DNA of 51,056 bases from Chloroflexota bacterium. GTDB lineage: Bacteria; Chloroflexota; Dehalococcoidia; E44-bin15. Under the pieces are notes generated by a model. It did not search any database. It had not been told where the DNA came from and saw nothing but the letters and a program-made list of their open reading frames with translations. Below are positions 37,540 through 51,056 of the stretch, in pieces. The stretch is taken from NCBI GenBank assembly GCA_030626475.1, contig DAOUOW010000003.1:1-51056 (forward strand), written 5' to 3'. A program made the translations under genes and the position numbers. Within the stretch, counting starts at the first letter, position 1, and each line of letters opens with the position of its first letter.

Positions 37540-40068
<2,529 letters not shown>

Positions 40069-40148
40069 CTACCTACGCGTAAAGCTATGGCAGAGCTTCA
40101 CCAAAAACAAAAGTCAATTGCCGAGCAATTAGTGGTATACATTTAATT

Positions 40149-40177
40149 ATTATAGCACAAATTGGCGATTATGTGAA
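40149..40177 (-). promoter_or_regulatory. gyrB promoter
   Basis: TTCACA-17-TATAAT; only about 5 nt from the stop of the last phage-like gene. Confidence 0.7.
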
Positions 40178-40181
40178 GGTT

Positions 40182-40394
40182 TTAACTGTAAACCGCCACC
40201 AGAACTGCGTCCTGGGGGTTGGTCTCTTCGAAGAATATGAGGGCACAGTGGCGGCCGGTAACCATCTCAGAGGAAGGGATGTTTCTCGCCACCGGCACCC
40301 CTTCGAGCCAGACGGAAAGGCTGCCGGCAACCTGAACCGTTGCCCTGTAGGTTCCCGAATCAAAGCCCTTTATTACACCCTTTCTCACTTCCAT
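40182..40394 (-). CDS. Small putative OB-fold tail-tip/spike protein
   Basis: G.I..FD..TYRATVQ pattern; last gene of cluster, coupled to the previous gene. Confidence 0.5.
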   Translation of the reverse strand: MEVRKGVIKGFDSGTYRATVQVAGSLSVWLEGVPVARNIPSSEMVTGRHCALIFFEETNPQDAVLVAVYS

Positions 40395-42373
40395 TACACC
40401 CCTCCCAGGCGAAGCCTCTGCTCATAGCGGGCCTCGCGCCCTGAGGTGGAGTAGCGAAGCGTCATCCCCACCACACGCCGCCTCACCGAGGACAGCCCCG
40501 CCCGCTCATCGGTGATTTCGACCACATCGTAGAGGTCCTGCCCACAGTTTAGGGGCACCAGAATCTCGCCGCCACTTGCCGCTATCGCCTGCTCCCTGAG
40601 CTCGGCTTCGCCCCGAGCCTTAGCCTTGGCCAGTGTATCCAGATTCAGGTCGTGAACCTGACCCAGGCGGTCATAGATCTTGGCGATCTCATCCCAGTCG
40701 AATGTTTCTCTCATAATGCCATCGCCGTAGACCTGCACCCGATTAATCTCCTGGGTGCCAGAGGTATAGCGAGCCTCAAAGATGGCATGGTCGGTTCCAT
40801 AGCTATAGACGCTCTCCTCATCGGAAACGGGATTCTTTAAATAACCGCAGTCCCTGAGGAAGAAGAGGACATCGGGAACCATCTCCAGCAGGCGGCGCAC
40901 TGCTGTAGCGCCACTCTCCCTGGGGTGGATGGTGAAGGCGGGGTATTGATTGACCAACGCCTCGCTGGTGCTGAAGGCTGAGACTTCGAGCCCTGCCCGG
41001 GCAAGAAGGAAGGAAAGCAGCTGGAAGATGTTCTTCTCCCCCTGAGCCCAACTGAACTGTCGCCGTGCCCGCCAGTGATCGAGAAGCCATCGGCCATCGC
41101 GGCCGTGAAGCACAAAATAGGAGCGGCCGGCTTCGGAGACATATTCCCAGCTCTCGATCCAATAGGCAGGACCCAGGGAAAACTCGGCTCCAACGGTGGT
41201 TCTATAGCCGGGGTAAACCAGGAGTTCGGAGCCTGCTTTGATCGCGGCATAGTCTCCACTGCCAGCCTCCTTATAGCGTCCATCATCGTTGCGAAGCACC
41301 ACAGCAATCCTGCCCGAAAAAACCTCGGTCACGGCGCTAATCTCGACCACATCATCGGTGAGCTCCACGGCAGCGGGGGAACGCGGTGCCCGCCACACGC
41401 CAAAGGCGGTGCAGAGCCAGACATAGGAGTCATGATGGGTGATGGCTACGCCGTAGCTACTGGCGAGGTTGAATGGGACCGGCTCGCGCCAGAGATTGGA
41501 GATGAAATCGGCGGTGACTAAGGAATGAGACCACAGGGGGCGACTATAGACATCAGGCCCCTCATACTTCTCGACGAAGAAGGCTCGGAAAACGTCGGGG
41601 CATGCAAGATATGGGTAGTGAAATTCCACTCCTGAGCCGGCGCTGGAGAGGATGAGCTCGGCTAAAGGGGACCAAGTGCCCGGGGTGGCAGAATAGCCAT
41701 CGCCGTAGACACAGGTGCAGACCTTGTAGTTGTTGGAGCTGTCCTGTCCGCTGACAATTACGTTCCAGTCCCAGTGATAGACAACCGAAACCCCGCTAAT
41801 GGAGGCAAGGCTGTTGGTCCACGCCGCCCACGACCCCCAGTCATCGCCTACTCGCAAGCGTCGGTAGAGGATGCCCTGGGCGGCATAAAGGAAAAGGATC
41901 GTGGTGGAGTCCTTGTAGGCTACTGCGACCCGGACATCGAAAGCCGGGCCTGCAGTGGAGCCGAAGTAGCTCCACCCGGTCCAGTTTTGGCCATAATCGC
42001 TGCTGTGGCTCTCGGCGAGCCAGCCGTTGGCCGCAACGCGAAGACAGAATACGTGCTCGCCAAAGGAGGCCAGGGCGACGGCGTAGGTAGAATTAGACCA
42101 TAGCGTCCAGGAAGAGAAATCGCTTTCAGGGCCGGGGCTGGTCACCCGCTGCCGGTAGAGATTGTGGGTATTGGGGTCAACCCTGAGCCGCACCAGCGAG
42201 CCATCGCCGGGCATGGTGGCTGCATGGTAGAAATCGGGCTCAATCCCGGTGTAAAGGCGGCTCCAGATGAGCCGGGTGACCCCGCCCACCCTTTCCACCA
42301 CCTCCACCCTGACATAGGGCAGCCTGGACTCGCTCTTCTGGGCATCAAGCAGAGTGCTCGATAGATACTTCAC
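40394..42373 (-). CDS. Tail nozzle/hub-like protein (beta-rich N-half, baseplate-hub-like C-half)
   Basis: Trp/Ser/Tyr-rich beta repeats; C-terminal ESGATAVRRLL, INRVQVYG, PLNCGQDLYDVVEITD resembles hub proteins. Confidence 0.55.
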   Translation of the reverse strand: MKYLSSTLLDAQKSESRLPYVRVEVVERVGGVTRLIWSRLYTGIEPDFYHAATMPGDGSLVRLRVDPNTHNLYRQRVTSPGPESDFSSWTLWSNSTYAVALASFGEHVFCLRVAANGWLAESHSSDYGQNWTGWSYFGSTAGPAFDVRVAVAYKDSTTILFLYAAQGILYRRLRVGDDWGSWAAWTNSLASISGVSVVYHWDWNVIVSGQDSSNNYKVCTCVYGDGYSATPGTWSPLAELILSSAGSGVEFHYPYLACPDVFRAFFVEKYEGPDVYSRPLWSHSLVTADFISNLWREPVPFNLASSYGVAITHHDSYVWLCTAFGVWRAPRSPAAVELTDDVVEISAVTEVFSGRIAVVLRNDDGRYKEAGSGDYAAIKAGSELLVYPGYRTTVGAEFSLGPAYWIESWEYVSEAGRSYFVLHGRDGRWLLDHWRARRQFSWAQGEKNIFQLLSFLLARAGLEVSAFSTSEALVNQYPAFTIHPRESGATAVRRLLEMVPDVLFFLRDCGYLKNPVSDEESVYSYGTDHAIFEARYTSGTQEINRVQVYGDGIMRETFDWDEIAKIYDRLGQVHDLNLDTLAKAKARGEAELREQAIAASGGEILVPLNCGQDLYDVVEITDERAGLSSVRRRVVGMTLRYSTSGREARYEQRLRLGGV

Positions 42374-42726
42374 CCCTTCCCCCCGATCAGCGCCTCCAAG
42401 GTATGGGGAAGCTCCCTACCTGCCTTTTGGTAGTGGGAAGCAAGGTGCCGGGCGGCGTGAAGTATCTGCTCTGCGGTGGCCTCGACCCTCTGCCCTCGGT
42501 AGCCGCCGGGGGAGAGGGCCGCCACTGCAGCCGGCATGCGATCCCAGTCCACAGTCCTTTCGATGTCCAGCTTTCCTGCCAGTGCGCGGAAGATGGCCCG
42601 GGTATGGTGGGGGAGCTTCCAGGTCTCCGGGTCTTCAGGGTCGCCAACGATGGCGAATGCTTCTAAGGGCAATCCCCCCTTCAGTTTGCCCAGCCCGTTT
42701 CGTATCTTATCCTGTGCTGTGGTCAT
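42370..42726 (-). CDS. Phage-associated helical domain protein (WKLPHH family)
   Basis: AFAIVGDP..PETWKLPHH...AAVAAL...HLASHY. Confidence 0.55.
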   Translation of the reverse strand: MTTAQDKIRNGLGKLKGGLPLEAFAIVGDPEDPETWKLPHHTRAIFRALAGKLDIERTVDWDRMPAAVAALSPGGYRGQRVEATAEQILHAARHLASHYQKAGRELPHTLEALIGGKG

Positions 42727-42736
42727 TGTTTACCTC

Positions 42737-43372
42737 TTAAGGCCCCCAGTCGGTGGTTTGGCTCGCCCCTGGCTCATAGGCGCGGTAGAGGCGACGGGCG
42801 CGCACCCTGTTTTTCCGGCTGTGCCTGGCTAAGGCGCGGAGGAAGGAAGCCAAGCGGTCCTGTCCCCAGGTGAGGTAGCTTTTCCAGGTGGAGCTGCCGC
42901 CAAGGTTCACCCGATTGGTGGCAAAGCTGGCCCACTCCACTGCGGCGTAGCCCTCAGCCCCTACAGCCACCACATCCTCAAGGGGCGAGGGGAGGGTAGA
43001 GGTGGCTTCATCCAGGGTATGGAGCTTGCCGTAGTAGATATCTACCTCTTCCCCCTCACCCGGAGTTCTATCGGTGAGCAGGGTCAGGGTATCGCCCCAG
43101 AGGCTGAAGCGAATGTATTGCGGCGGGTACTGCCCCGTGGGGTACTCCACGGCCTCGATGGCAACCAGGTCGCTGAGGCTGGAGATGGAAAGATCTCGGC
43201 TGCCGGCGGTGGTATACAGGGCGGCCTTGGTCTCAATGGGAACGGCGATGCTCAACTCCCTCACCGCGTGTTCGATGTGGCGATTCAGCTCCTCATCTGT
43301 CCAGCGATAATTGTTGGCATCCTCGTCATGCAGGTCCTGGCGCACCCGCGCCCTCATCTCCGCCAGGTTCAT
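42737..43372 (-). CDS. Head-tail adaptor-like protein
   Basis: MNLAEMRARVRQDLHDED...RWTDEELNRHI helical start typical of connector proteins. Confidence 0.6.
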   Translation of the reverse strand: MNLAEMRARVRQDLHDEDANNYRWTDEELNRHIEHAVRELSIAVPIETKAALYTTAGSRDLSISSLSDLVAIEAVEYPTGQYPPQYIRFSLWGDTLTLLTDRTPGEGEEVDIYYGKLHTLDEATSTLPSPLEDVVAVGAEGYAAVEWASFATNRVNLGGSSTWKSYLTWGQDRLASFLRALARHSRKNRVRARRLYRAYEPGASQTTDWGP

Positions 43373-43535
43373 ATCTCCTCCTTTGCGGCGCTATCAACCG
43401 AAGCTCCCCTGCCCTACATGAGGGACACTCCCCTGCCTTCAGCTCACGGATTTCAGGGAAATGTAGCCTTGCCGTATCCTCGGTCATTTCAAAATCCTGG
43501 GTATAACCGCAATTGGGACAACTCCAGGTGGTCAT
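43326..43535 (-). CDS. Small zinc-ribbon protein
   Basis: CPNC...CPSC. Confidence 0.5.
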   Translation of the reverse strand: MTTWSCPNCGYTQDFEMTEDTARLHFPEIRELKAGECPSCRAGELRLIAPQRRRYEPGGDEGAGAPGPA

Positions 43536-43771
43536 GGCACCTCCTCTAGAGCTGGCATCGTTTCTGGAGTTATGTCCATTCCCTTCTCTTTAACCGCCAG
43601 CCCTTTGCCTATCGCGTGCTCATTTAAGCGCCTCTGTTCATCAGGTGACAGTTGTGGCTCAAACTCCAGGATTATCTCATCGCCTGATTGGATAATGGCT
43701 TGAGGCGCCCTGCCGATGGCCGCTTCCATCTCTTGCCAGATGTCTTGCTTGATGAGTTTGTATCGCATCAT
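43532..43771 (-). CDS. Hypothetical protein (possible fibre chaperone)
   Basis: Overlapping stop/start with fibre gene. Confidence 0.5.
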   Translation of the reverse strand: MMRYKLIKQDIWQEMEAAIGRAPQAIIQSGDEIILEFEPQLSPDEQRRLNEHAIGKGLAVKEKGMDITPETMPALEEVP

Positions 43772-45417
43772 CGATCCCTTTCATACGCGATTCTGCCCAA
43801 CCGCATATATTTGTTGGCAGCTTCGTTTGTCGTAAAGCCCATGTTCAGACGATACTGACCCGCCGCCGGCAAATTGTCGGTATGGGTTACTTTCAGCACA
43901 CCATCTACGTAGAACTTAACGTTGGTCCCCTGGGTCACCACCGCTCTAAGCACTGTATGCTGACTGCCTGACGATATATTGACCCCTGTGTCGGTGATCT
44001 TCTGGGTAGTGTCGTCTCCATTGCTGGCGTAGAGGTCGCCGTTCACGATCTTAAACCCAAAATGGTTATCCGTTTCCGTAGGAGGCGCGTTAGTGTTCTG
44101 ACACTGATGGAGGTAGGTGGTCTGATTTGCAACGCTGATGGTGAAGCTATAAAGCAGCCACTCCACAGTGGTAACTTTCCCTGTCTCCACTAACCTGTAA
44201 ATATCACATTTGGCATACAGGTATGCTTTGTTCCCTGAGACGTTGCCAGTCTTTAAGTAGATATTGTGGCCATCAGCACTTATGGAACCGCCTGTGTCGA
44301 TAGTGCTCGTAAAGCCGTCCTTGCTCACCCAGCACAGGATTTCTCTGAACTTATCGAAGAAATCAAAAGAGCCACCGCCATCAACGTCTGCCCAAACTGG
44401 GTTCGCTCCGGCACCCTGGGTCTTGAGGAACTGACCAGAGGTACCAGCGCCAAGCCTTGTCGGCCCGGCGGCATCCCTGATTAAGATATCGCCCTGGGTG
44501 GTGAGGACACCACCAAGCCTGGCGGCGGGGAGATTTCCCGTGGTGAGTTCCGAGGCATCTACGGTCTTTTCATGGTGGTCGGACGCTCCGATCCCGGTCA
44601 GGCTTGAGTGAGCCCGCTCCGTCAGGTTTGCCAGAGCATCGTGGGGAACAACGGTGCCCAGGGGGTGGCGCTCAGTGGTATCGTGCCGAGAGGTATTGAG
44701 ATATTGAGTGTGGTCATCATCCCCCAGGCCGTCCAGCGCCAGCCCATGATCCAGCTTGCCTCCAGTCCCACCTCCAGATGATTGGTGGGTATGGTCTTTC
44801 GGCTTCTGGAGATCGGCAAGCTCACCGCTCAACCCCTCCACGCTGATCTCATCAGCACCGCCGTCCTGGTGGCTTGCGGCGTGTGCCTTAGGGTCATGGT
44901 CCTGGACTTGCGCCTTTGTCGCGCCCTCCAACTTCTCGGAGTTGTCCACAATGCCGTCATCATCGGTATCATAGACGGATTTGAGCATGTCTCCGCCACC
45001 AGCCGGGGTTTTCGGCTTCCACTTGCTGGTAGTCTGCTCCCATGTCACCACCTGCCCATCGGCAGGTGCGCCGCTATCGAGGTCTCTTCCCTGGAGCTTC
45101 ACCGCATCATGTTCGAGATCGGTGATCTCACTTTCAGTATGCGTATGAGCTTTAGGGTCATGGTTCTGGACTTGCGCCTTTGTGCTCCCCTCCAGCTTCT
45201 CGGAGTTGTCCACAATGCCGTCATCATCGGTATCATAGACGCTCTTGAGCATATCGCCCCCACCGCTGGGGGTGTCAAATTCCAGGGCGTTCTCCGCGGC
45301 GTGCACCTTGGCATATTTGCCCCCCTCCCCCGCATAGCTACCGGGTGTATCGGAGAGTCCCAGGAATTCGGTGACGCCGCCTTCAGCGTATCCCTCACCG
45401 GCAAGTCTTAGTGCCAT
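43768..45417 (-). CDS. Fibre protein (head or tail) with repeated His/Asp-rich shaft and C-terminal beta-sandwich
   Basis: FLGLSDTPGSYAG motif, HxH repeats, GTSGQFLKTQGAGANPVW, lectin-like tip. Confidence 0.7.
   Translation of the reverse strand: MALRLAGEGYAEGGVTEFLGLSDTPGSYAGEGGKYAKVHAAENALEFDTPSGGGDMLKSVYDTDDDGIVDNSEKLEGSTKAQVQNHDPKAHTHTESEITDLEHDAVKLQGRDLDSGAPADGQVVTWEQTTSKWKPKTPAGGGDMLKSVYDTDDDGIVDNSEKLEGATKAQVQDHDPKAHAASHQDGGADEISVEGLSGELADLQKPKDHTHQSSGGGTGGKLDHGLALDGLGDDDHTQYLNTSRHDTTERHPLGTVVPHDALANLTERAHSSLTGIGASDHHEKTVDASELTTGNLPAARLGGVLTTQGDILIRDAAGPTRLGAGTSGQFLKTQGAGANPVWADVDGGGSFDFFDKFREILCWVSKDGFTSTIDTGGSISADGHNIYLKTGNVSGNKAYLYAKCDIYRLVETGKVTTVEWLLYSFTISVANQTTYLHQCQNTNAPPTETDNHFGFKIVNGDLYASNGDDTTQKITDTGVNISSGSQHTVLRAVVTQGTNVKFYVDGVLKVTHTDNLPAAGQYRLNMGFTTNEAANKYMRLGRIAYERDR
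44888..45264. repeat. Intragenic direct repeat, about 113 nt x2, offset 264 nt (44888-45000 and 45152-45264)
   Basis: Both encode GGGDMLKSVYDTDDDGIVDNSEKLEG.TKAQVQ.HDPKAH. Confidence 0.9.
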
Positions 45418-45428
45418 CTCTACCTCCT

Positions 45429-45812
45429 TTAACAGAGCACGTAGTCAGCGCTGAGGCTGAAGGATGTGCCCGAAAATTGGGTCACTTTGAGGAAGATGGT
45501 GGAGCCTCGGGCATCGGGCACCGCCAGAGCATAGCGACCGGTCTCGGTGAACTGCCGCGAAGCCCCGCCGAACCATATGGATTGGCGAGAGTTCCAGAAG
45601 ATGACCTGCACCGTAAGGCTGGTGAAATCTACGCCGTCAATGGTTAAGTCCAGGCGGCAGTATTCATAGCCACTGCAATCGATGGCGCCACTGGTATCCT
45701 CTGGGTCGGCGGCATCGACAGCGGTGACACCGCTCCGATGCAATCCCGGCTCCGTTGTCTCATAGACCGGACCCTTGGGGATCCCGTTCTCATCAATGCG
45801 TACATTTGCCAT
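45429..45812 (-). CDS. Putative capsid decoration/spike-base jelly-roll protein
   Basis: All-beta 127 aa protein right after the capsid gene. Confidence 0.45.
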   Translation of the reverse strand: MANVRIDENGIPKGPVYETTEPGLHRSGVTAVDAADPEDTSGAIDCSGYEYCRLDLTIDGVDFTSLTVQVIFWNSRQSIWFGGASRQFTETGRYALAVPDARGSTIFLKVTQFSGTSFSLSADYVLC

Positions 45813-45868
45813 AGCTCACCCCCTGTTCAGGTGGAGGGAGATAGAGCAACGCCCTACCCCCCTCCTTT

Positions 45869-46756
45869 CTAGTCGCGAACTCCAATGAGTTTCGCGAGCT
45901 TTATGGTGTTGAACGCGGCGATGGAGACGTACCACTTGACTCTGGTCCTGGAGGCGTCCCTGGTCTCAAGGCTGCCCACCCGCTCTACCTGGAGCCCTCC
46001 GGGGCTGGTGAGCCCGGCTACTGCCCCCTCGCCGAACTTAAGGGCGTAGATGGTGGAGCAGTCTTCGGAGCTGCCAACGGTGTTGTCATCTGCGATCCAA
46101 TCGCAAACCCCGATGGGGGTGGCGTCGTAAAACTCCACCATCTGCCCAAACTGGTTGCTATCGGTGACCAGAACCCCGCCTGCGGCCCGGCTCAAAGCGG
46201 TGAGCTTGCGCCTCGAGCGCCGGCTCATGAGAAGCATCTCCGGCTTGCCCCCCTTGAGCTTGTCGATGAGCTCATCGAGCTTCTCCAGGGTGAGGGTGGC
46301 TCCATTTGCGCCCATGCTCACCGTCTGGTTGACATCGCAGAGCGTATCGATGCCATCGAAGGACTTGGGATCGGATGTGGTATCGCCGTTGATGAACGTG
46401 TCCTCGAACTTCTGCTGCACCGCCTTGGCCTTGAGCTGAACGACGGCGGCCTCCAGGTCCTGGATATTGCTCCTGGTTGCCTTGAGGAAGTTGTCAACAT
46501 CGGCGTCGCCGCCCAGGATCTTGAGCGTGGCCGTCTTCTGGGTGAAGGTCGGCGTGGACTCAGCCCAGGTATCGCCAACGTCATAGAAGGCTGCGGTGGC
46601 TGCTTCGTTCTCCTGGTTGTAGGTCAGCCCATTGCCCACGATCTCGATGAACGGCATAAGCTGAAGGATGGGGCTATCATAGATGATGGTCTCGATAACC
46701 CCCACGAGCAAAATGTCGTTGGAAAGCTTTGCTGCTTCGGCTAGAGTAAGTGCCAT
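45869..46756 (-). CDS. Major capsid protein, HK97 fold
   Basis: SPILQLMPF, FINGD....SFDGI, LEKLDELID, LLMSR; 295 aa after scaffold. Confidence 0.85.
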   Translation of the reverse strand: MALTLAEAAKLSNDILLVGVIETIIYDSPILQLMPFIEIVGNGLTYNQENEAATAAFYDVGDTWAESTPTFTQKTATLKILGGDADVDNFLKATRSNIQDLEAAVVQLKAKAVQQKFEDTFINGDTTSDPKSFDGIDTLCDVNQTVSMGANGATLTLEKLDELIDKLKGGKPEMLLMSRRSRRKLTALSRAAGGVLVTDSNQFGQMVEFYDATPIGVCDWIADDNTVGSSEDCSTIYALKFGEGAVAGLTSPGGLQVERVGSLETRDASRTRVKWYVSIAAFNTIKLAKLIGVRD

Positions 46757-46812
46757 GTTTGCCTCCTTTGGTTATTTGCGTTTTTCCTTGGGTTTCTGGC
46801 CTTCCCACTGAG

Positions 46813-47283
46813 CTATGTGGTTTGTTGTGTGTGAGAAAGGGCGTAGGCGATTTTTTCCTGTGGGGAGAGCGCCCCGAGATCGGGAGGCGTCCTTGCCGGA
46901 GCCCCGGTGGGTACCCTCTCCGCTTCAGCCTGAGCCTCAAGCTGCGTCTTCACCTTCTCCACCATCTCCCGAGCGGCAGCAAAGGAGGCCTCCACCTCCT
47001 GGGGGGTCTCTCCCGTGATCAGCTCTTGGGGCACCTCGGGGGCGGTGGTGAGGATGAGGGCTCGATATTTGGCTGCGGCGCCGGATAGCTGCTCCCTGAG
47101 CGCCGTCACCTCGCTCTCAACCTCCTGCTCCCGCTCCGCCATCTGCTGCTGAAGCTGGACCAGTGTCGCCTCCAGCTCCCCGATCCGCCTCTCCTGTTCG
47201 TTTTCTGTGCCCTCGCCCCCGCCCTCGCCCTCGCCCTCGCTCTCGGCCTTCATCTCCTCGACCTCTTTGGTTTCCTCGGTCAT
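46813..47283 (-). CDS. Scaffolding protein
   Basis: Acidic coiled coil, C-terminal GAPART...LSPQEKI..AL; immediately upstream of capsid. Confidence 0.7.
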   Translation of the reverse strand: MTEETKEVEEMKAESEGEGEGGGEGTENEQERRIGELEATLVQLQQQMAEREQEVESEVTALREQLSGAAAKYRALILTTAPEVPQELITGETPQEVEASFAAAREMVEKVKTQLEAQAEAERVPTGAPARTPPDLGALSPQEKIAYALSHTQQTT

Positions 47284-47329
47284 GTTCCACCTCCTTTTTT
47301 CGCCAGAAGGGTGCAGGTGTGCTACTCTC

Positions 47330-47359
47330 TTTATAGAACATCTGTTCTCATGCTGTCAA
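47330..47359 (-). promoter_or_regulatory. Capsid-operon promoter with LexA (Cheo-type) box in the spacer
   Basis: TTGACA (47354-47359), AGAACATCTGTTCT (47335-47348), TATAAA (47330-47335). Confidence 0.75.
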
Positions 47360-47375
47360 GGGAAAGATGGCACAG

Positions 47376-47404
47376 TTGACTATTTAGAAAGGGATGGTTA
47401 TATT
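47376..47404 (+). promoter_or_regulatory. Divergent promoter for accessory genes
   Basis: TTGACT-17-TATATT. Confidence 0.6.
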
Positions 47405-47460
47405 TTGGGTGGGGAAAAGGATGCTGAAAAAGATAAAGGTTTCATGCGGGGAGGTGAGCC

Positions 47461-47913
47461 TTGACAACAGCCATGCCATTTGAGAGAGGGCCCTACCTGT
47501 TAGCGGCCTTCATTTGTGAAAAGGTATTGGAAGAAAAGGATGGGGTTAAATCGGCTATTCGCATCATCGACCGGGTAACACGCACCGTGGTAGACCCTAG
47601 TCCCCCAGAGAAGATGGAGCCTTTCGACCACGAGTTGACGCTGTTAATCAAGCTGAAGTCGGGCAACGCGCGTGGTGTTTATCCCATTCAGGTTCGCTTA
47701 GTGAAGCCGTCTGGTGAAAGCCCCACGCCCTTTGCTCAGAACGTTTTATTTGAAGGTGAGGAGGATCGGGGTGTGGACATTGTGATGAATATGAAGGTCA
47801 GATTTGACCAGACTGGTATTTACTGGTTTCATATATATCTTGGAGACGTGCGCTTAACCCAGATTCCGTTCAGGGTTAACTATGTGCCTCAGGTCAGGCA
47901 GGTACCGGGATAG
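47461..47913 (+). CDS. Hypothetical protein (DUF6941-like beta-sandwich)
   Basis: AAFICEKVLEE..GVKSAIRIIDR...FDQTGIYWF pattern; GGAGG SD. Confidence 0.6.
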   Translation: MTTAMPFERGPYLLAAFICEKVLEEKDGVKSAIRIIDRVTRTVVDPSPPEKMEPFDHELTLLIKLKSGNARGVYPIQVRLVKPSGESPTPFAQNVLFEGEEDRGVDIVMNMKVRFDQTGIYWFHIYLGDVRLTQIPFRVNYVPQVRQVPG

Positions 47914-48211
47914 TCTTATCGGAAGCTGTCGTAACAGCGGTAGCAACAGGCTCTATATCAGGAGAAGAAACCAGGATGGTATCCCTCTCGCTAATGAAAC
48001 CCTGAAGGTGCTTTTGGAGTGTTAGTTCATCTATTATGCCCTCGCCAAGTTCAACAAGGTCAGCATCTATCTCATTCGCATGGGCAATGGCTTTTTCATC
48101 GCCCGAGTCTAGGATTCTTTGAAGGTTGGACAACAGCCAGGCCTCCAAGTCTTGGAGGGTGCACTGGTCATTCAAGTAATCTCGTATATGATCTAGGAGC
48201 TCTTGATCCAT
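47894..48211 (-). CDS. Hypothetical helical protein (start ATG 48211)
   Basis: GGAGG SD 7 nt upstream; MDQELLDHIRDYL...LEAWL. Confidence 0.5.
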   Translation of the reverse strand: MDQELLDHIRDYLNDQCTLQDLEAWLLSNLQRILDSGDEKAIAHANEIDADLVELGEGIIDELTLQKHLQGFISERDTILVSSPDIEPVATAVTTASDKTIPVPA

Positions 48212-48545
48212 GACAAAACCTCCGCGGTCAGACAAGGTTAAATACGTATCCCGTAATAGTATACGTAAAATGTTCAACGAAAGTCAATATCCAGACATGA
48301 TAGCACGTGGACAGTTGGCACCGGAGCACCCCTACCTGCGCGATGACCACTTGAAGGAACCTGAAGAATATCAAGGGCCGTATTGTACACGTAGCCAAAC
48401 GATCCGCTATTATGACAGTAATGGCCAGTGGGTTGTGGTGGTTCACCAATATCTGCGCCCAGACAAGACGCTCGGGGCAAGTGGCATGCCAGACCCTAAA
48501 AGGTTGCGATTTGGAAACACAGTTTTCAGTGTTCCTCCCAAATAG
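48210..48545 (+). CDS. Hypothetical protein
   Basis: AGGAG SD; TRSQTIRYYD...VVVHQYLRPDKTLGASGMPDPKRL. Confidence 0.6.
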   Translation: MTKPPRSDKVKYVSRNSIRKMFNESQYPDMIARGQLAPEHPYLRDDHLKEPEEYQGPYCTRSQTIRYYDSNGQWVVVVHQYLRPDKTLGASGMPDPKRLRFGNTVFSVPPK

Positions 48546-48587
48546 AATCAGGCATCCCGCATTTGCCTTAGCTTGATCGATTTTCGC

Positions 48588-49889
48588 CTATGTTCCCCCC
48601 TTCTCCTCCATCCACCGCTTGAACTCGCCCTCGGGGTCGTCCACCCCCAGCTCCTCCATGGCGCGGCGGCGGCTGTGAATCCCGGCCTCAACCAGTATCT
48701 GCTCCTCCCTCACTAGCCGGCCCCGGTCCTGGGGCAAGACCGGACCCCAGATTATCCGCGAGCGGTAGGGGCTGTAGCCCACGCCGGTCTTCTGCTCCAG
48801 GATGCGCAGGATCATCTCGTTTCGCTTCTTATAGACGGCGGTGCGGATGAGCCGCTTTCGCCTCACCTTCTGCAGCAGGGGGTGAAGCTCCATCTCCAGC
48901 GCTACCCCTGATAGACCCCTCTGGTTATCGCCAAAGCTGGTTCGCGGCGACTCCGACAGGTCGTGGAGGGTGCGATAGATGAGGTCGATGTAGTCCACGT
49001 GGAGCCTTACTCCGCCGCCCTGGAGCAAATCCAGCAGATAAGCCCTCGCCTTCTCCGGAAGCTCCCATACCGCCCCAGGTTGGACCGCGATGTCGGAAGC
49101 CTCCTCCACATTTTCCAGGACGGCGATGGGATTGCCCGAGAGCTCGAGGATGGTGGAGAGCTGGGACATGGCGCGGTTGAGCTCCTGCGCTGGCTCCTTT
49201 ATCGCCGTGATGTCGGAGACGCCCCAGAACTTCTTCGGCTCGCGCAGGTTGGGGTAGATGATGAACGGGATGAAGCCGTAGGGATTGGGTTTTCGCCTGA
49301 GGAGGTCGTTATCGATCCAGAGCTCGAAATCGCGGGCGGTCCACACCTCTACCACCGTCGATTCCTTCTTCCGGTTTTTCACCCCGTAGAGGAACTCCAC
49401 CTCGTCGGCGGAGAGCTGGTAGCGGCTGGCGACCCGCCATACCCGGCTCACATCGTCGCCCACCCACCAGGCAAAAAGCCCCTGGACATCGGGCGCCGAT
49501 ACCCTGATCCGCTGTTCCTCGCTGTCCCAGGTTACCTTGAAGCAGCCATCGCCGAGGATGGCGGTATCGAGCTCGGTATCGAAGTCCAGTTGCTCCAGGT
49601 TATTGCCCCCGTAAACCTGATTTAGCGCCTCCTCCGCTCTCCTCGCCCTCTCCTTGGCCTCGGTGGAATCATCAACCGGATCAACGACGAAGTTGAGCCC
49701 GCTTATCAAATAGGAGGTCGCCTTTTCCACGAACGCCTTGGCGTAGTTGATGGTGATGCGCCGCTCCCCCCGTCTTCGATTCCCCAGCCACTGCATTCCG
49801 TTATAGAACTCCAGATTCTCGCGATAGGCCCTGATGCGCTGAAAGTCCTTGCGCCCGAGCTGCTGTGGAAGAGAAATATTATTCGTCAT
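48588..49889 (-). CDS. Phage portal protein (SPP1 gp6-like)
   Basis: INYAKAFVEK, AILGDG, WGVSDI, SGVAL; between terminase and scaffold. Confidence 0.85.
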   Translation of the reverse strand: MTNNISLPQQLGRKDFQRIRAYRENLEFYNGMQWLGNRRRGERRITINYAKAFVEKATSYLISGLNFVVDPVDDSTEAKERARRAEEALNQVYGGNNLEQLDFDTELDTAILGDGCFKVTWDSEEQRIRVSAPDVQGLFAWWVGDDVSRVWRVASRYQLSADEVEFLYGVKNRKKESTVVEVWTARDFELWIDNDLLRRKPNPYGFIPFIIYPNLREPKKFWGVSDITAIKEPAQELNRAMSQLSTILELSGNPIAVLENVEEASDIAVQPGAVWELPEKARAYLLDLLQGGGVRLHVDYIDLIYRTLHDLSESPRTSFGDNQRGLSGVALEMELHPLLQKVRRKRLIRTAVYKKRNEMILRILEQKTGVGYSPYRSRIIWGPVLPQDRGRLVREEQILVEAGIHSRRRAMEELGVDDPEGEFKRWMEEKGGT

Positions 49890-50142
49890 GGTTCCTCCCG
49901 ATAATGCGATAAACAGTCCTTTTGCTCACGCCGAAGCGCTGCGCTAGGTTTTCGACCTTTAGCCCTTCCTTCTGGTGGAGGTGTACTATCTCCTTATTTC
50001 TCAAGTCCTTGGCTGTTTGCCTCCTCCCTGGCTCATCGTAGCGACACCGGGGAAGGGGACAGTTGAGGCACGAAGCAAATAGATCGCAGCCATCGTCCCG
50101 ATACCCTAAGTGCTCAGGAAGCAACTCGTGCTTCGATTTCAT
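49879..50142 (-). CDS. Cys-cluster plus helix-turn-helix protein
   Basis: C-x5-C-x2-C-x4-C then LAQRFGVSKRTVYRII HTH. Confidence 0.75.
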   Translation of the reverse strand: MKSKHELLPEHLGYRDDGCDLFASCLNCPLPRCRYDEPGRRQTAKDLRNKEIVHLHQKEGLKVENLAQRFGVSKRTVYRIIGRNHDE

Positions 50143-51056
50143 TTGTCCCCTCCCAAGCGACCTTTTGCGCTCCGGGGCCGGTATTCTGCCGCCTCGATGA
50201 GCAGGGCCAGGCTCATCAGGAAGTCATCGTGCCCCTGGTGGGGGTCAACATAGAAGTTCATCGTCTGGCTGGGGCGAAAGACGCTCTTTGCCCTTTCCAG
50301 CTCAAACCAGAACTCCTGACATTCCTCCGAGCCGTCGGCGGCATACATCTTCGCCCTTCCCGAATTTACTGCCGCCAGCAGATTGAACCCCAGCCTGGAT
50401 TTGCTTTGCTGGGTGAAGGGGAAAGGCGCAACCACCGCTTTGCCCAGGGCTTTGGTCAGGAAGCTGGCTACCCCGGCGCCGACCCCGGTGCTATCCACCA
50501 CCACACGCCGGCAGCGCCAAACGTTCTTCAAGACGTCCACCAGCTGGGGGTAGAGGGAGGCATGGGGTTTGCCCGTCCACCAGTAGTGCTCCACTATGTT
50601 TACCCTGGGTTGTTGGATGATCTCGTTATAGGTCGAAAAATCCAGCTCCCCGATGGTCACCACTGTGGAATCCTGCCTCGGTTTCAGGGCGCGAAGCATG
50701 GCATCCTCCCCCTCCTCCGCCTCCCCGGCGAGGTCAATCCCGGCAACGTAGACCTTTCCCTCCTCGGGAAGATGGCGGCGGCCATGAGCACCTTGAAGTT
50801 GCGCCTGCTGCTGAGGGCTGAGGAAGCCACCGCCGCCGTGGATCGGCTTCAAGCAATATTGGGTCTGAAACAGGGGATGGCTCTCCCCCAGCCTCTCTCT
50901 TTCGCCCTCTACGTAGCGAAGATAGTGAGGATTGTATTGTGCTACTTCTTGCCAATCAAAATGGAAATGGCGCTTTATTCCATCCCTGCGCTCCAGTTCC
51001 AGGTTGGTCTGCTTCACCTCCTCGAGGAGGGTGGCATCGTCCCAGGTGGTGCCGTA
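50139..51056 (-). CDS. Terminase large subunit, C-terminal nuclease part (5' end outside window)
   Basis: FQTQY, YVAGIDLAG, VVVDSTGVG, HDDFLMSLAL RNase H-type motifs; frame open to the window edge. Confidence 0.85.
   Translation of the reverse strand, partial: YGTTWDDATLLEEVKQTNLELERRDGIKRHFHFDWQEVAQYNPHYLRYVEGERERLGESHPLFQTQYCLKPIHGGGGFLSPQQQAQLQGAHGRRHLPEEGKVYVAGIDLAGEAEEGEDAMLRALKPRQDSTVVTIGELDFSTYNEIIQQPRVNIVEHYWWTGKPHASLYPQLVDVLKNVWRCRRVVVDSTGVGAGVASFLTKALGKAVVAPFPFTQQSKSRLGFNLLAAVNSGRAKMYAADGSEECQEFWFELERAKSVFRPSQTMNFYVDPHQGHDDFLMSLALLIEAAEYRPRSAKGRLGGDK

Follow-up and report, generated by a model that had tools for sequence, protein, structure and literature searches.

Gene transfer agents (GTAs), particles that bring host DNA to related cells, have been characterised in few lineages only. 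RcGTA, of Rhodobacter capsulatus and also Caulobacter, is encoded by a phage-derived set of head, packaging and tail genes that lacks integrase and replication genes, is inherited vertically over a large clade under purifying selection, answers to host regulators, and is split between loci in some genomes; LexA also influences RcGTA. PBSX of Bacillus forms SOS-inducible, chromosomally fixed particles that package host DNA. Here we describe a gene set of this general kind in a 51,056-nucleotide stretch of DNA from a Dehalococcoidia bacterium (phylum Chloroflexota; contig DAOUOW010000003.1 of assembly GCA_030626475.1), referred to as the window, in which the set, referred to as the element, extends from position 40182 beside gyrB to the contig end. 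The element is probably a phage-derived set that is owned by Dehalococcoidia and inherited along with their chromosome, controlled by the SOS response and GTA-like, and not a prophage. A preliminary description of this DNA had likewise called it a candidate GTA-like system rather than an active prophage, and all of its proposed checks that were run favour that assessment. Two refuting conditions are touched in part, as the distribution is not universal and one family-level conflict between element and host trees is significant. It also knew of no characterised GTA from this phylum, and the literature searched describes none for Dehalococcoidia or Chloroflexota; a 2026 preprint on IME1 was rejected as a precedent, as it concerns a different, filamentous-type element.

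Similar to RcGTA, the element combines structural and packaging genes without genes for integration, replication or lysogeny, its own right end being unassembled, and across a broad clade it passes down with the host under purifying selection, with one exception in the phylogeny of family f1. Host regulation is indicated by a LexA-type operator at two to three module promoters. The element differs from RcGTA in lacking a prohead protease, a tail tube, a tape measure and RcGTA-type baseplate genes, in its separate scaffold-like protein, SU10-type adaptor and β-propeller-bearing gp27-type hub, in carrying LexA boxes directly in its structural promoters, and in belonging to another phylum. The RcGTA-type (Rhodogtaviriformidae) gene set was not found, as judged by family profiles without direct comparison with RcGTA proteins, and the element, best read as being of independent origin, does not belong to the RcGTA family. 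Like PBSX, it is a chromosomally fixed and probably SOS-controlled phage-like set; the PBSX locus is contiguous over ~28 kb and provides a complete contractile tail, lysis functions and a repressor of its own, whereas the element has a stub tail, modules that may lie far apart, and a host LexA box as operator. BaGTA (Bartonella), VSH-1 (Brachyspira), Dd1 and VTA (Methanococcus) are likewise independently domesticated particles, some multi-locus; no sequence kinship with the element is expected, and they are compared by functional class only. In the Bacillus phage GIL01, promoters are repressed directly by host LexA (PMC4551915). A host LexA box inside a phage-type promoter, tying expression to the SOS response, is thus shared with GIL01; GIL01, however, is a self-replicating phage with LexA on its lysogeny switch, whereas in the element the box is placed at the structural operons of a chromosomal set.

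Gene content, distribution and inheritance

The window is the entire contig C30 of a metagenome-assembled genome (MAG; 1.12 Mb, 60 contigs, 68% complete), in which the set is contiguous and spans ~12-13 kb (Table 1). Two modules are distinguished: a head/tail module of scaffold, capsid, adaptor, hub and plug genes, and a packaging module encoding TerS, TerL, a helix-turn-helix (HTH) protein and the portal. Packaging and head genes with a minimal tail had been recognised in the preliminary description and are confirmed by Pfam and PHROG matches and by folding; the reading frames in the window, reported there as intact, align over their full length to those of relatives. Pfam, PHROG and NCBIfam searches of the window proteins revealed neither an integrase, a repressor or a replication gene nor a protease, tube, sheath, tape measure or lysin. 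Ten carrier genomes were searched for tyrosine recombinases, the one recombinase class covered, and none is present on element contigs or less than 40 kb from a module; a direct-repeat search around the complete copy of genome G004 (L036) returned no flanking repeats. Among the features of a temperate prophage, namely a contiguous integrase with att sites, a repressor, and replication and lysis genes, only a holin-like protein with three transmembrane (3-TM) segments was found. The earlier statement that a lysis gene is missing holds for the window but needs qualification beyond it, because relatives keep the gene for this protein just past the window's right end.

That similar capsid and adaptor proteins recur in Dehalococcoidia, as suggested in the preliminary description, is verified for the class. 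In a sample of 401 genomes spread evenly over the class, the capsid gene occurs in 229 genomes (205 of the 371 of high quality), which represent 127 of 207 genera; nearly all of them have a single copy, and identities are 57-98%. The set is therefore present in over half of the class, at about 55-57%, but element-free genera exist as well. When species representatives were scanned with a sequence pattern, 358 loci could be confirmed. Carriers include complete genomes of 1.7-2.1 Mb in genus g93 of family f48. Among 101 sampled relatives, the capsid gene (single-copy) was found in 50, the portal in 56 and TerL in 62; the portal accompanies the capsid gene in 46 of the 50 capsid-positive genomes, the four exceptions being fragmented assemblies. 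IMG/VR yielded 160 matches, all of them fragments of 2-27 kb, and no full phage genome. The best cultured-phage capsid shares 41% identity, and the nearest cultured capsids, at about 40%, are those of Pseudomonas and Caulobacter siphophages. In other classes of the phylum, 20 genomes from several families carry a single capsid homologue with 46-55% identity.

The position beside gyrB is shared widely, in line with the synteny that the preliminary description had proposed to look for. A contiguous set adjoins gyrB in at least 11 species of three families: G003, G004, G005, G010, G015, G018, G022, G023 and G025 in family f1, G035 in the sister family f2, and G070 in family f37. In G062 and G083, gyrB is located ~10 kb from the head/tail module. 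The two modules are separated in other, complete genomes, by 11.6 kb with inversion in G055, 32 kb in G041, 47 kb in G040, 66 kb in G083, 170 kb in G062 and about 564 kb in G097. All frames are open in these genomes, and capsid, portal and terminase genes occur together even where 32-564 kb of cellular DNA lies between the modules. This dispersed arrangement is incompatible with a working prophage and, by geometry, the full set of a genome with modules 32-564 kb apart is not transmissible in one particle; the argument applies to such genomes and not to the contiguous ~12-13-kb set of the window.

The core genes are under purifying selection, as a further proposed check showed: dN/dS (NG86, eight genome pairs) ranges from 0.05 to 0.3 for every core gene. 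The synonymous divergence (dS) of gyrB, capsid, portal and TerL genes is 0.58, 0.62, 0.71 and 0.87 between this genome (G000) and G004; 0.17, 0.27, 0.24 and 0.17 between G004 and G006; and 0.54, 0.73, 0.96 and 0.83 between G040 and G083. The similarity of element dS to gyrB dS indicates that element and host gene diverged together in these pairs. A gyrB tree and a tree of the concatenated element (capsid, portal, TerL, adaptor and hub) for 33 genomes have nine of 30 splits in common; with shuffled labels, 0.26 splits are shared on average and three at most. Patristic distances in the two trees are correlated (Mantel Spearman rho 0.58), a value reached in none of 5000 permutations.

Module promoters and LexA-type boxes

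The preliminary description placed a LexA box in control of the capsid operon, and a LexA-type box, AGAACAGATGTTCT, is indeed found in the promoter of that operon, between its TTGACA and TATAAA elements. The lexA gene is missing from this incomplete MAG. All seven relatives examined have lexA, and in each of them exactly one GAAC-N4-GTTC box stands immediately upstream of it; the same box precedes dinB in this genome. The LexA of Dehalococcoides reportedly binds a box of the Gram-positive type. Three box sites of the genome are in promoter context: the head promoter, dinB, and a gene for a 182-aa protein with a Rad52/Sak-like motif (C4:38240-38875), where a TTGACA-17-TATAAT promoter is followed directly by AGAACATCTGTTCG. 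Because this box is nearly identical to that of the capsid promoter, the Rad52/Sak-like gene is likely an SOS gene.

The box recurs at the same modules in relatives. Upstream of the head module, 25 of 98 loci have an exact box and 64 have one within one mismatch; upstream of HTH-portal, the corresponding numbers are 12 and 15 of 40 loci, and in random 350-nt windows the rates are 1.9% and 13%. Upstream of the adaptor, hub, TerS and gyrB genes, the box does not occur beyond chance. The strongest direct repeat of G004 is a composite promoter of ~40 nt, present in three copies that precede the membrane-protein/TerS operon, HTH-portal and the head operon. In loci totalling about 2 Mb, both strands together contain 22 matches to GTGACA-N6-9-TTGAC[AT], of which at least 19 are upstream of an element module and 14 have the box in place; the composite promoter is specific to element modules. 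The head promoter of the window differs from this pattern at one position (GTGCCA). No HTH copy of the promoter is present in the window because the TerL and HTH genes overlap; G001, a genome of the same genus, likewise has no HTH copy, and where its packaging operon starts there is a box with one mismatch. Taken with the lexA and dinB sites, this distribution argues for LexA control of the element.

Structure of the locus

The assignment of the tail genes came from structure prediction, as a sequence-profile search of the PDB with the hub protein gave weak hints. An AlphaFold2 model of the 659-aa protein, built on a 26-sequence alignment (pLDDT 93, pTM 0.88), displays a gp27 / Mu gp44 baseplate-hub fold in its C-terminal ~340 residues. 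Foldseek searches with this model returned the AlgoCIS baseplate (7aef_q, 2.7e-17) and Mu gp44 (1wru, 1.2e-16, TMt 0.72), together with type VI secretion system VgrG, T4 gp27 and BFVD tail proteins. The N-terminal half folds into a β-propeller, with weak BNR/sialidase and All3320 profile matches, and constitutes an addition to the gp27-type hub fold. The 70-aa protein is modelled as an OB barrel (pLDDT 92). Among PDB structures, this model comes closest to the P2 gpV spike (1.4e-3), with Mu gp45 and T4 gp5 next in rank. As unspecific OB folds reach similar scores, the reading of this protein as a minimal spike or plug on the hub depends on the invariable place of its gene after the hub gene. 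The models thus bear out a minimal tail, in which adaptor, hub and putative plug are joined by a variable fibre-like protein.

Several other components vary in how widely they are kept. The SU10-type adaptor is conserved in nearly all relatives, as is the placement of the HTH gene between TerL and portal genes in those compared; the PHROG family that it matches, phrog_836, comprises late transcriptional activators. The window TerL, which has lost its N-terminal ~155 aa at the contig end, is 96% identical to that of G001; the complete TerL of G004 has 457 aa, and its residues 158-456 share 82% identity with the window protein. The 156-aa scaffold-like protein has no family match in Pfam, PHROG or NCBIfam, is 33-91% conserved in relatives, and is assigned a putative scaffold role from its composition and position. 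The 127-aa accessory protein that follows the capsid gene has no family match, including in NCBIfam and PADLOC, and by position one might guess at a decoration protein. No reliable family match was obtained for the 118-aa protein with Pfam, PHROG, NCBIfam or PADLOC; the NCBIfam and PADLOC runs were uninformative on the unassigned window proteins in general. The 549-aa fibre-like protein is 74%, 60% and 28% identical in the three closest relatives and is absent or replaced elsewhere, and the adjoining 79-aa and 69-aa genes are confined to the closest relatives, with homologues in G001 and G003. The slot between portal and head operon holds genes without PHROG, NCBIfam or convincing PADLOC matches, which carry promoter-like sites of their own. 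A DUF6941 gene, divergent from the head promoter, is found in the same position in a distant relative (L054:1175-1582). The small open reading frames (ORFs) of the element in the window have no TM segments.

Table 1. Positions, strands and supporting matches of the element and its surroundings in the window
Feature	Position	Strand	Basis or remark
fmt, obg, nadD-like gene			cellular genes left of element
dnaA	34585-35943		cellular gene left of element
gyrB	38128-40062		cellular gene left of element
gyrB promoter-like site	40149..40177	-	TTCACA-17-TATAAT with TG, 11/12 matches; before gyrB
70-aa OB-fold protein	40182..40394	-	always directly downstream of hub gene
Tail hub, 659 aa	40394..42373	-	N-terminal β-propeller fused to gp27 / Mu gp44-type hub (model)
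118-aa protein	42370..42726	-	75-82% identity in several relatives, missing in others
Head-to-tail adaptor, SU10 type	42737..43372	-	PF24175 9e-9, 36.4 bits (cut-off 27); phrog_399
Two small genes: 79 aa; 69 aa, zinc-ribbon-like	43326..43771	-	weak zinc-ribbon matches
549-aa fibre-like protein	43768..45417	-	weak N-terminal tail/virion PHROG matches; internal duplicated ~90-aa segment
127-aa accessory protein	45429..45812	-	follows capsid gene in many, not all, relatives
Major capsid protein, HK97 fold	45869..46756	-	phrog_212 6e-72, PF05065 7e-9
156-aa acidic coiled-coil protein, scaffold-like	46813..47283	-	composition; position just upstream of capsid gene
Head-operon promoter	47330..47373	-	GTGCCA-N8-TTGACA-N5-AGAACAGATGTTCT overlapping TATAAA
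LexA-type box	47335-47348		GAAC-N4-GTTC operator 47336-47347; flanked by TTGACA (47359-47354) and TATAAA (47335-47330); 53 nt upstream of scaffold-like gene
Variable slot between portal and head operon	47461..48545	mixed	three small unrelated genes; content varies among relatives
DUF6941 gene (slot)	47461-47913	+	DUF6941 9e-10
127-aa slot gene	47894-48277	-	
111-aa slot gene	48210-48545	+	
Portal, SPP1 gp6 type	48588..49889	-	PF05133 (SPP1_portal) 5e-23, phrog_64 9e-39
87-aa HTH protein, Mor/late-activator-like	49879..50142	-	HTH_23 2e-7, Mor 4e-5, phrog_836 1e-6
TerL, C-terminal 305 aa	50139..51056	-	weak Terminase_6C / phrog_38 matches

From 40182 to the contig end, nearly all genes are on the minus strand. 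At the left end, the preliminary description is borne out: the last stop codon of the element (70-aa gene, 40182-40184) lies 4 nt from the gyrB promoter-like site, and the interval that separates the element from gyrB (40063-40181) has no terminator-like site ahead of the gyrB promoter. In the absence of such a site, SOS-induced transcription of the head/tail genes might read through into gyrB. Its placement of the element about 4 kb from oriC is upheld in part: dnaA is 4.2 kb away, from which a nearby oriC may be supposed, but a DnaA-box scan located no DnaA-box cluster and the proximity is seen only in some families. The host-like GC content also needs restating, since the composition of the element is close to that of the host yet not typical, with 57.5% GC versus 54.9% for the genome (~97th percentile among equal-sized host segments) and a tetranucleotide distance at the 96th percentile.

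At the right end, position 51056 is an assembly break inside TerL and not a biological boundary of the element. Neither k-mer overlap nor tblastn queries with complete TerL and TerS sequences placed the missing N terminus of TerL, or the continuation of the window, on another contig of the MAG. The homologous stretch in G001, with 93% DNA identity, continues beyond TerL with a 111-aa TerS-like protein, an ORF of ~50 aa and a ~100-aa protein with three hydrophobic segments, after which a promoter and the cellular HIT gene follow; the sequence to the right, which the preliminary description had marked for inspection, thus consists in this relative of TerS, a small membrane protein and then cellular genes. 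The 3-TM protein encoded upstream of TerS is a candidate holin. In G034 and in L039, a 540-kb contig of another relative, a dehydrogenase-HIT flank also follows the TerS end, and in G004 a different cellular gene does. A HIT gene of the G001 type, with two or three acyl-CoA dehydrogenase genes, is located near the end of contig C5 of the MAG, and we infer that C5 and C30 are neighbours across a gap of at least ~1.5 kb. Downstream of this HIT gene, C5 bears a convergent ORF of at least 152 aa (C5:49512-49968) that matches nothing in any compared locus.

Many MAG contigs start or stop in the element (L035, L038, L045, L056, L066, L076, L083, and the window at 51056), frequently a short way upstream of the capsid gene or within variable slots, which suggests strain-level heterogeneity. 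These frequent breaks make absence calls in fragmented MAGs unreliable; an apparent absence in G002 and G012 was rejected, the contigs being cut inside the element.

Some relatives show further peculiarities. Genus g40 (G055:C1, G093) has four full-length TerL homologues with 58-59% identity plus fragments, in total 8-9 matches per genome as opposed to one copy in other genomes, which may represent a separate expansion or a mobile element using the terminase. The capsid gene contains an in-frame insertion of ~40-50 codons between residues ~130 and ~145 in G023 (L200:6716-7786) and G088 (G088:C17:15397-16401). G029 (4.9 Mb, 7% contamination), in which the gyrB site is empty, carries contiguous TerL, portal and capsid genes with 36-60% identity on a 15-kb contig (G029:C48:1-6000, L229); this set may belong to a genuine phage, represent a second lineage or result from misbinning. 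The gyrB genes of G002, G009, G023, G055, G082, G083 and G040 lie in frames of 800-1222 aa, with the match to the GyrB of the window interrupted near residues 490-580, probably by an intein or other insertion.

Interpretation and alternative explanations

Several observations weigh against a set that is simply host-owned and inherited. About 43% of the class genomes have no capsid gene, and complete genomes of genus g11, of the same family, have no set at gyrB; upstream of their gyrB are a nitroreductase, a clostripain-type peptidase and a PAS-GGDEF protein. No endolysin or prohead protease was found, and GC content and tetranucleotide usage of the element fall within the upper 3-4% of host segments. 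The bare GAAC-N4-GTTC box is not enriched genome-wide (11 sites versus 16 expected), so the regulatory argument is one of site location. C5, the expected HIT flank, ends in an unrelated ORF specific to this genome, and an extra insert in the C5-C30 gap is possible. Lastly, the agreement of the trees, which the preliminary description had proposed to examine, is incomplete: for the concatenated element alignment, an approximately unbiased (AU) test, run post hoc with the tree already known, rejects a monophyletic f1 (delta lnL 77.7, p = 0.0005), and in G005, G010, G022 and G023 the head-tail genes cluster with those of sister families instead of those of other f1 members. The element is thus not passed on in a strictly vertical manner.

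The absence in g11 suggests loss, as this genus is nested among carriers in the gyrB tree. The phylogenetic conflict is likewise circumscribed. An initial concatenated tree, in which some f1 members had the other families as neighbours, was not relied on for its topology. In a reduced head-tail tree, from which TerL and three long-branch rows were removed, the conflict shrank to one node and the host clade f1+G049+G048+G085 was recovered with full support. The TerL tree also recovers this clade and holds f1 together apart from one intruder. The four conflicting genomes still carry the set at gyrB, and we read the conflict as either a replacement of the head-tail module or a strong change of rate at a fixed locus.

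The main rival accepts a domesticated, host-owned particle but denies gene transfer, assigning it instead to PBSX-like killing or altruistic lysis, to DNA export, or to diversion of phage packaging as a defence. All the evidence for domestication applies equally to such a particle, direct SOS control is typical of PBSX-type defective phages, and a tail with neither tube nor tape measure does not obviously provide for DNA delivery. Podoviruses, however, deliver DNA without a tube; purifying selection on terminase, portal and capsid implies that DNA packaging matters, and the variable fibre-like protein and the hub β-propeller suggest adsorption to cells. A role without transfer appears unlikely on balance, if seriously to be considered.

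Much less probable is a common prophage, temperate or defective, with its genes for integration, regulation, replication and lysis past the contig end. The break inside TerL would suit it, given that MAG assemblies often break at prophages, as would the difference between the end of C5 and the G001 flank and a GC content slightly over the host mean. Yet the element of G001 ends with TerS and the small membrane protein before HIT, and those of G004, G034 and L039 end similarly; modules lie up to about 564 kb apart in complete genomes; no integrase was nearby in the ten genomes searched for tyrosine recombinases; and dS equals that of gyrB, with low omega, for a gene that is single-copy in 57% of class genomes. 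The least probable explanation is a mobile satellite or integrative element, such as a capsid-forming island akin to phage-inducible chromosomal islands (PICIs), that targets the gyrB site and so mimics synteny: it would account for capsid, portal and terminase with little tail, as in capsid-forming PICIs, for the recurrence beside gyrB, the one significant tree conflict and the viral listing of fragments in IMG/VR, but no integrase, primase or other replication gene or att repeats were found, the element has its own adaptor, hub and plug and dS parity with gyrB, its far boundary varies, and its modules are dispersed in other families.

On genomic criteria, the element, read as a chromosomally inherited and SOS-controlled set of Dehalococcoidia, is a strong candidate for a new kind of GTA. 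Under this model, DNA damage would lead to cleavage of LexA and derepress the module promoters, in which GTGACA-N8-TTGACA is followed by a LexA box that occupies the spacer and overlaps the -10 element. The head/tail operon would be transcribed from 47283 to 40182, and the packaging operon (membrane protein, TerS, TerL, HTH and portal) would start past the contig end. Scaffold-like and HK97-fold capsid proteins would assemble proheads on the SPP1-type portal, into which TerS and TerL would pack DNA; the SU10-type adaptor, a trimeric gp27-type hub with its β-propeller and the OB-fold plug would then seal the portal as a tube-less tail tip. The variable 549-aa protein may serve in adsorption, and release may proceed through lysis, with the conserved 3-TM protein as the holin candidate. 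The particles would bring host DNA to related cells in the manner of a GTA; LexA control, assembly, packaged DNA, lysis and transfer are steps that we infer, whereas gene content, folds, distribution, fixed position, selection, co-inheritance, the absence of integrases and the conserved operator are shown by the data.

A fuller version of this reading can be put forward tentatively, as possible rather than probable: that Dehalococcoidia, and perhaps some other Chloroflexota, possess an ancient, independently domesticated, SOS-induced GTA in which a podovirus-type adaptor sits directly on a myovirus-type hub with no tube, that its particles move random chromosomal DNA between relatives, and that the conflict between head-tail and host trees at an unchanged site reflects allelic replacement by such transfer.

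Viral-contig catalogues such as IMG/VR list host genes of this kind as viruses. If the interpretation is correct, the element would extend the record of phage domestication by an example that LexA controls directly and whose minimal tail is unusual. Dehalococcoidia are abundant in the subsurface and the ocean and include organohalide respirers used in bioremediation; they grow slowly and have small genomes and few known routes of genetic exchange. A class-wide GTA would give these bacteria a mechanism of gene exchange, and possibly of damage-induced recombinational repair.

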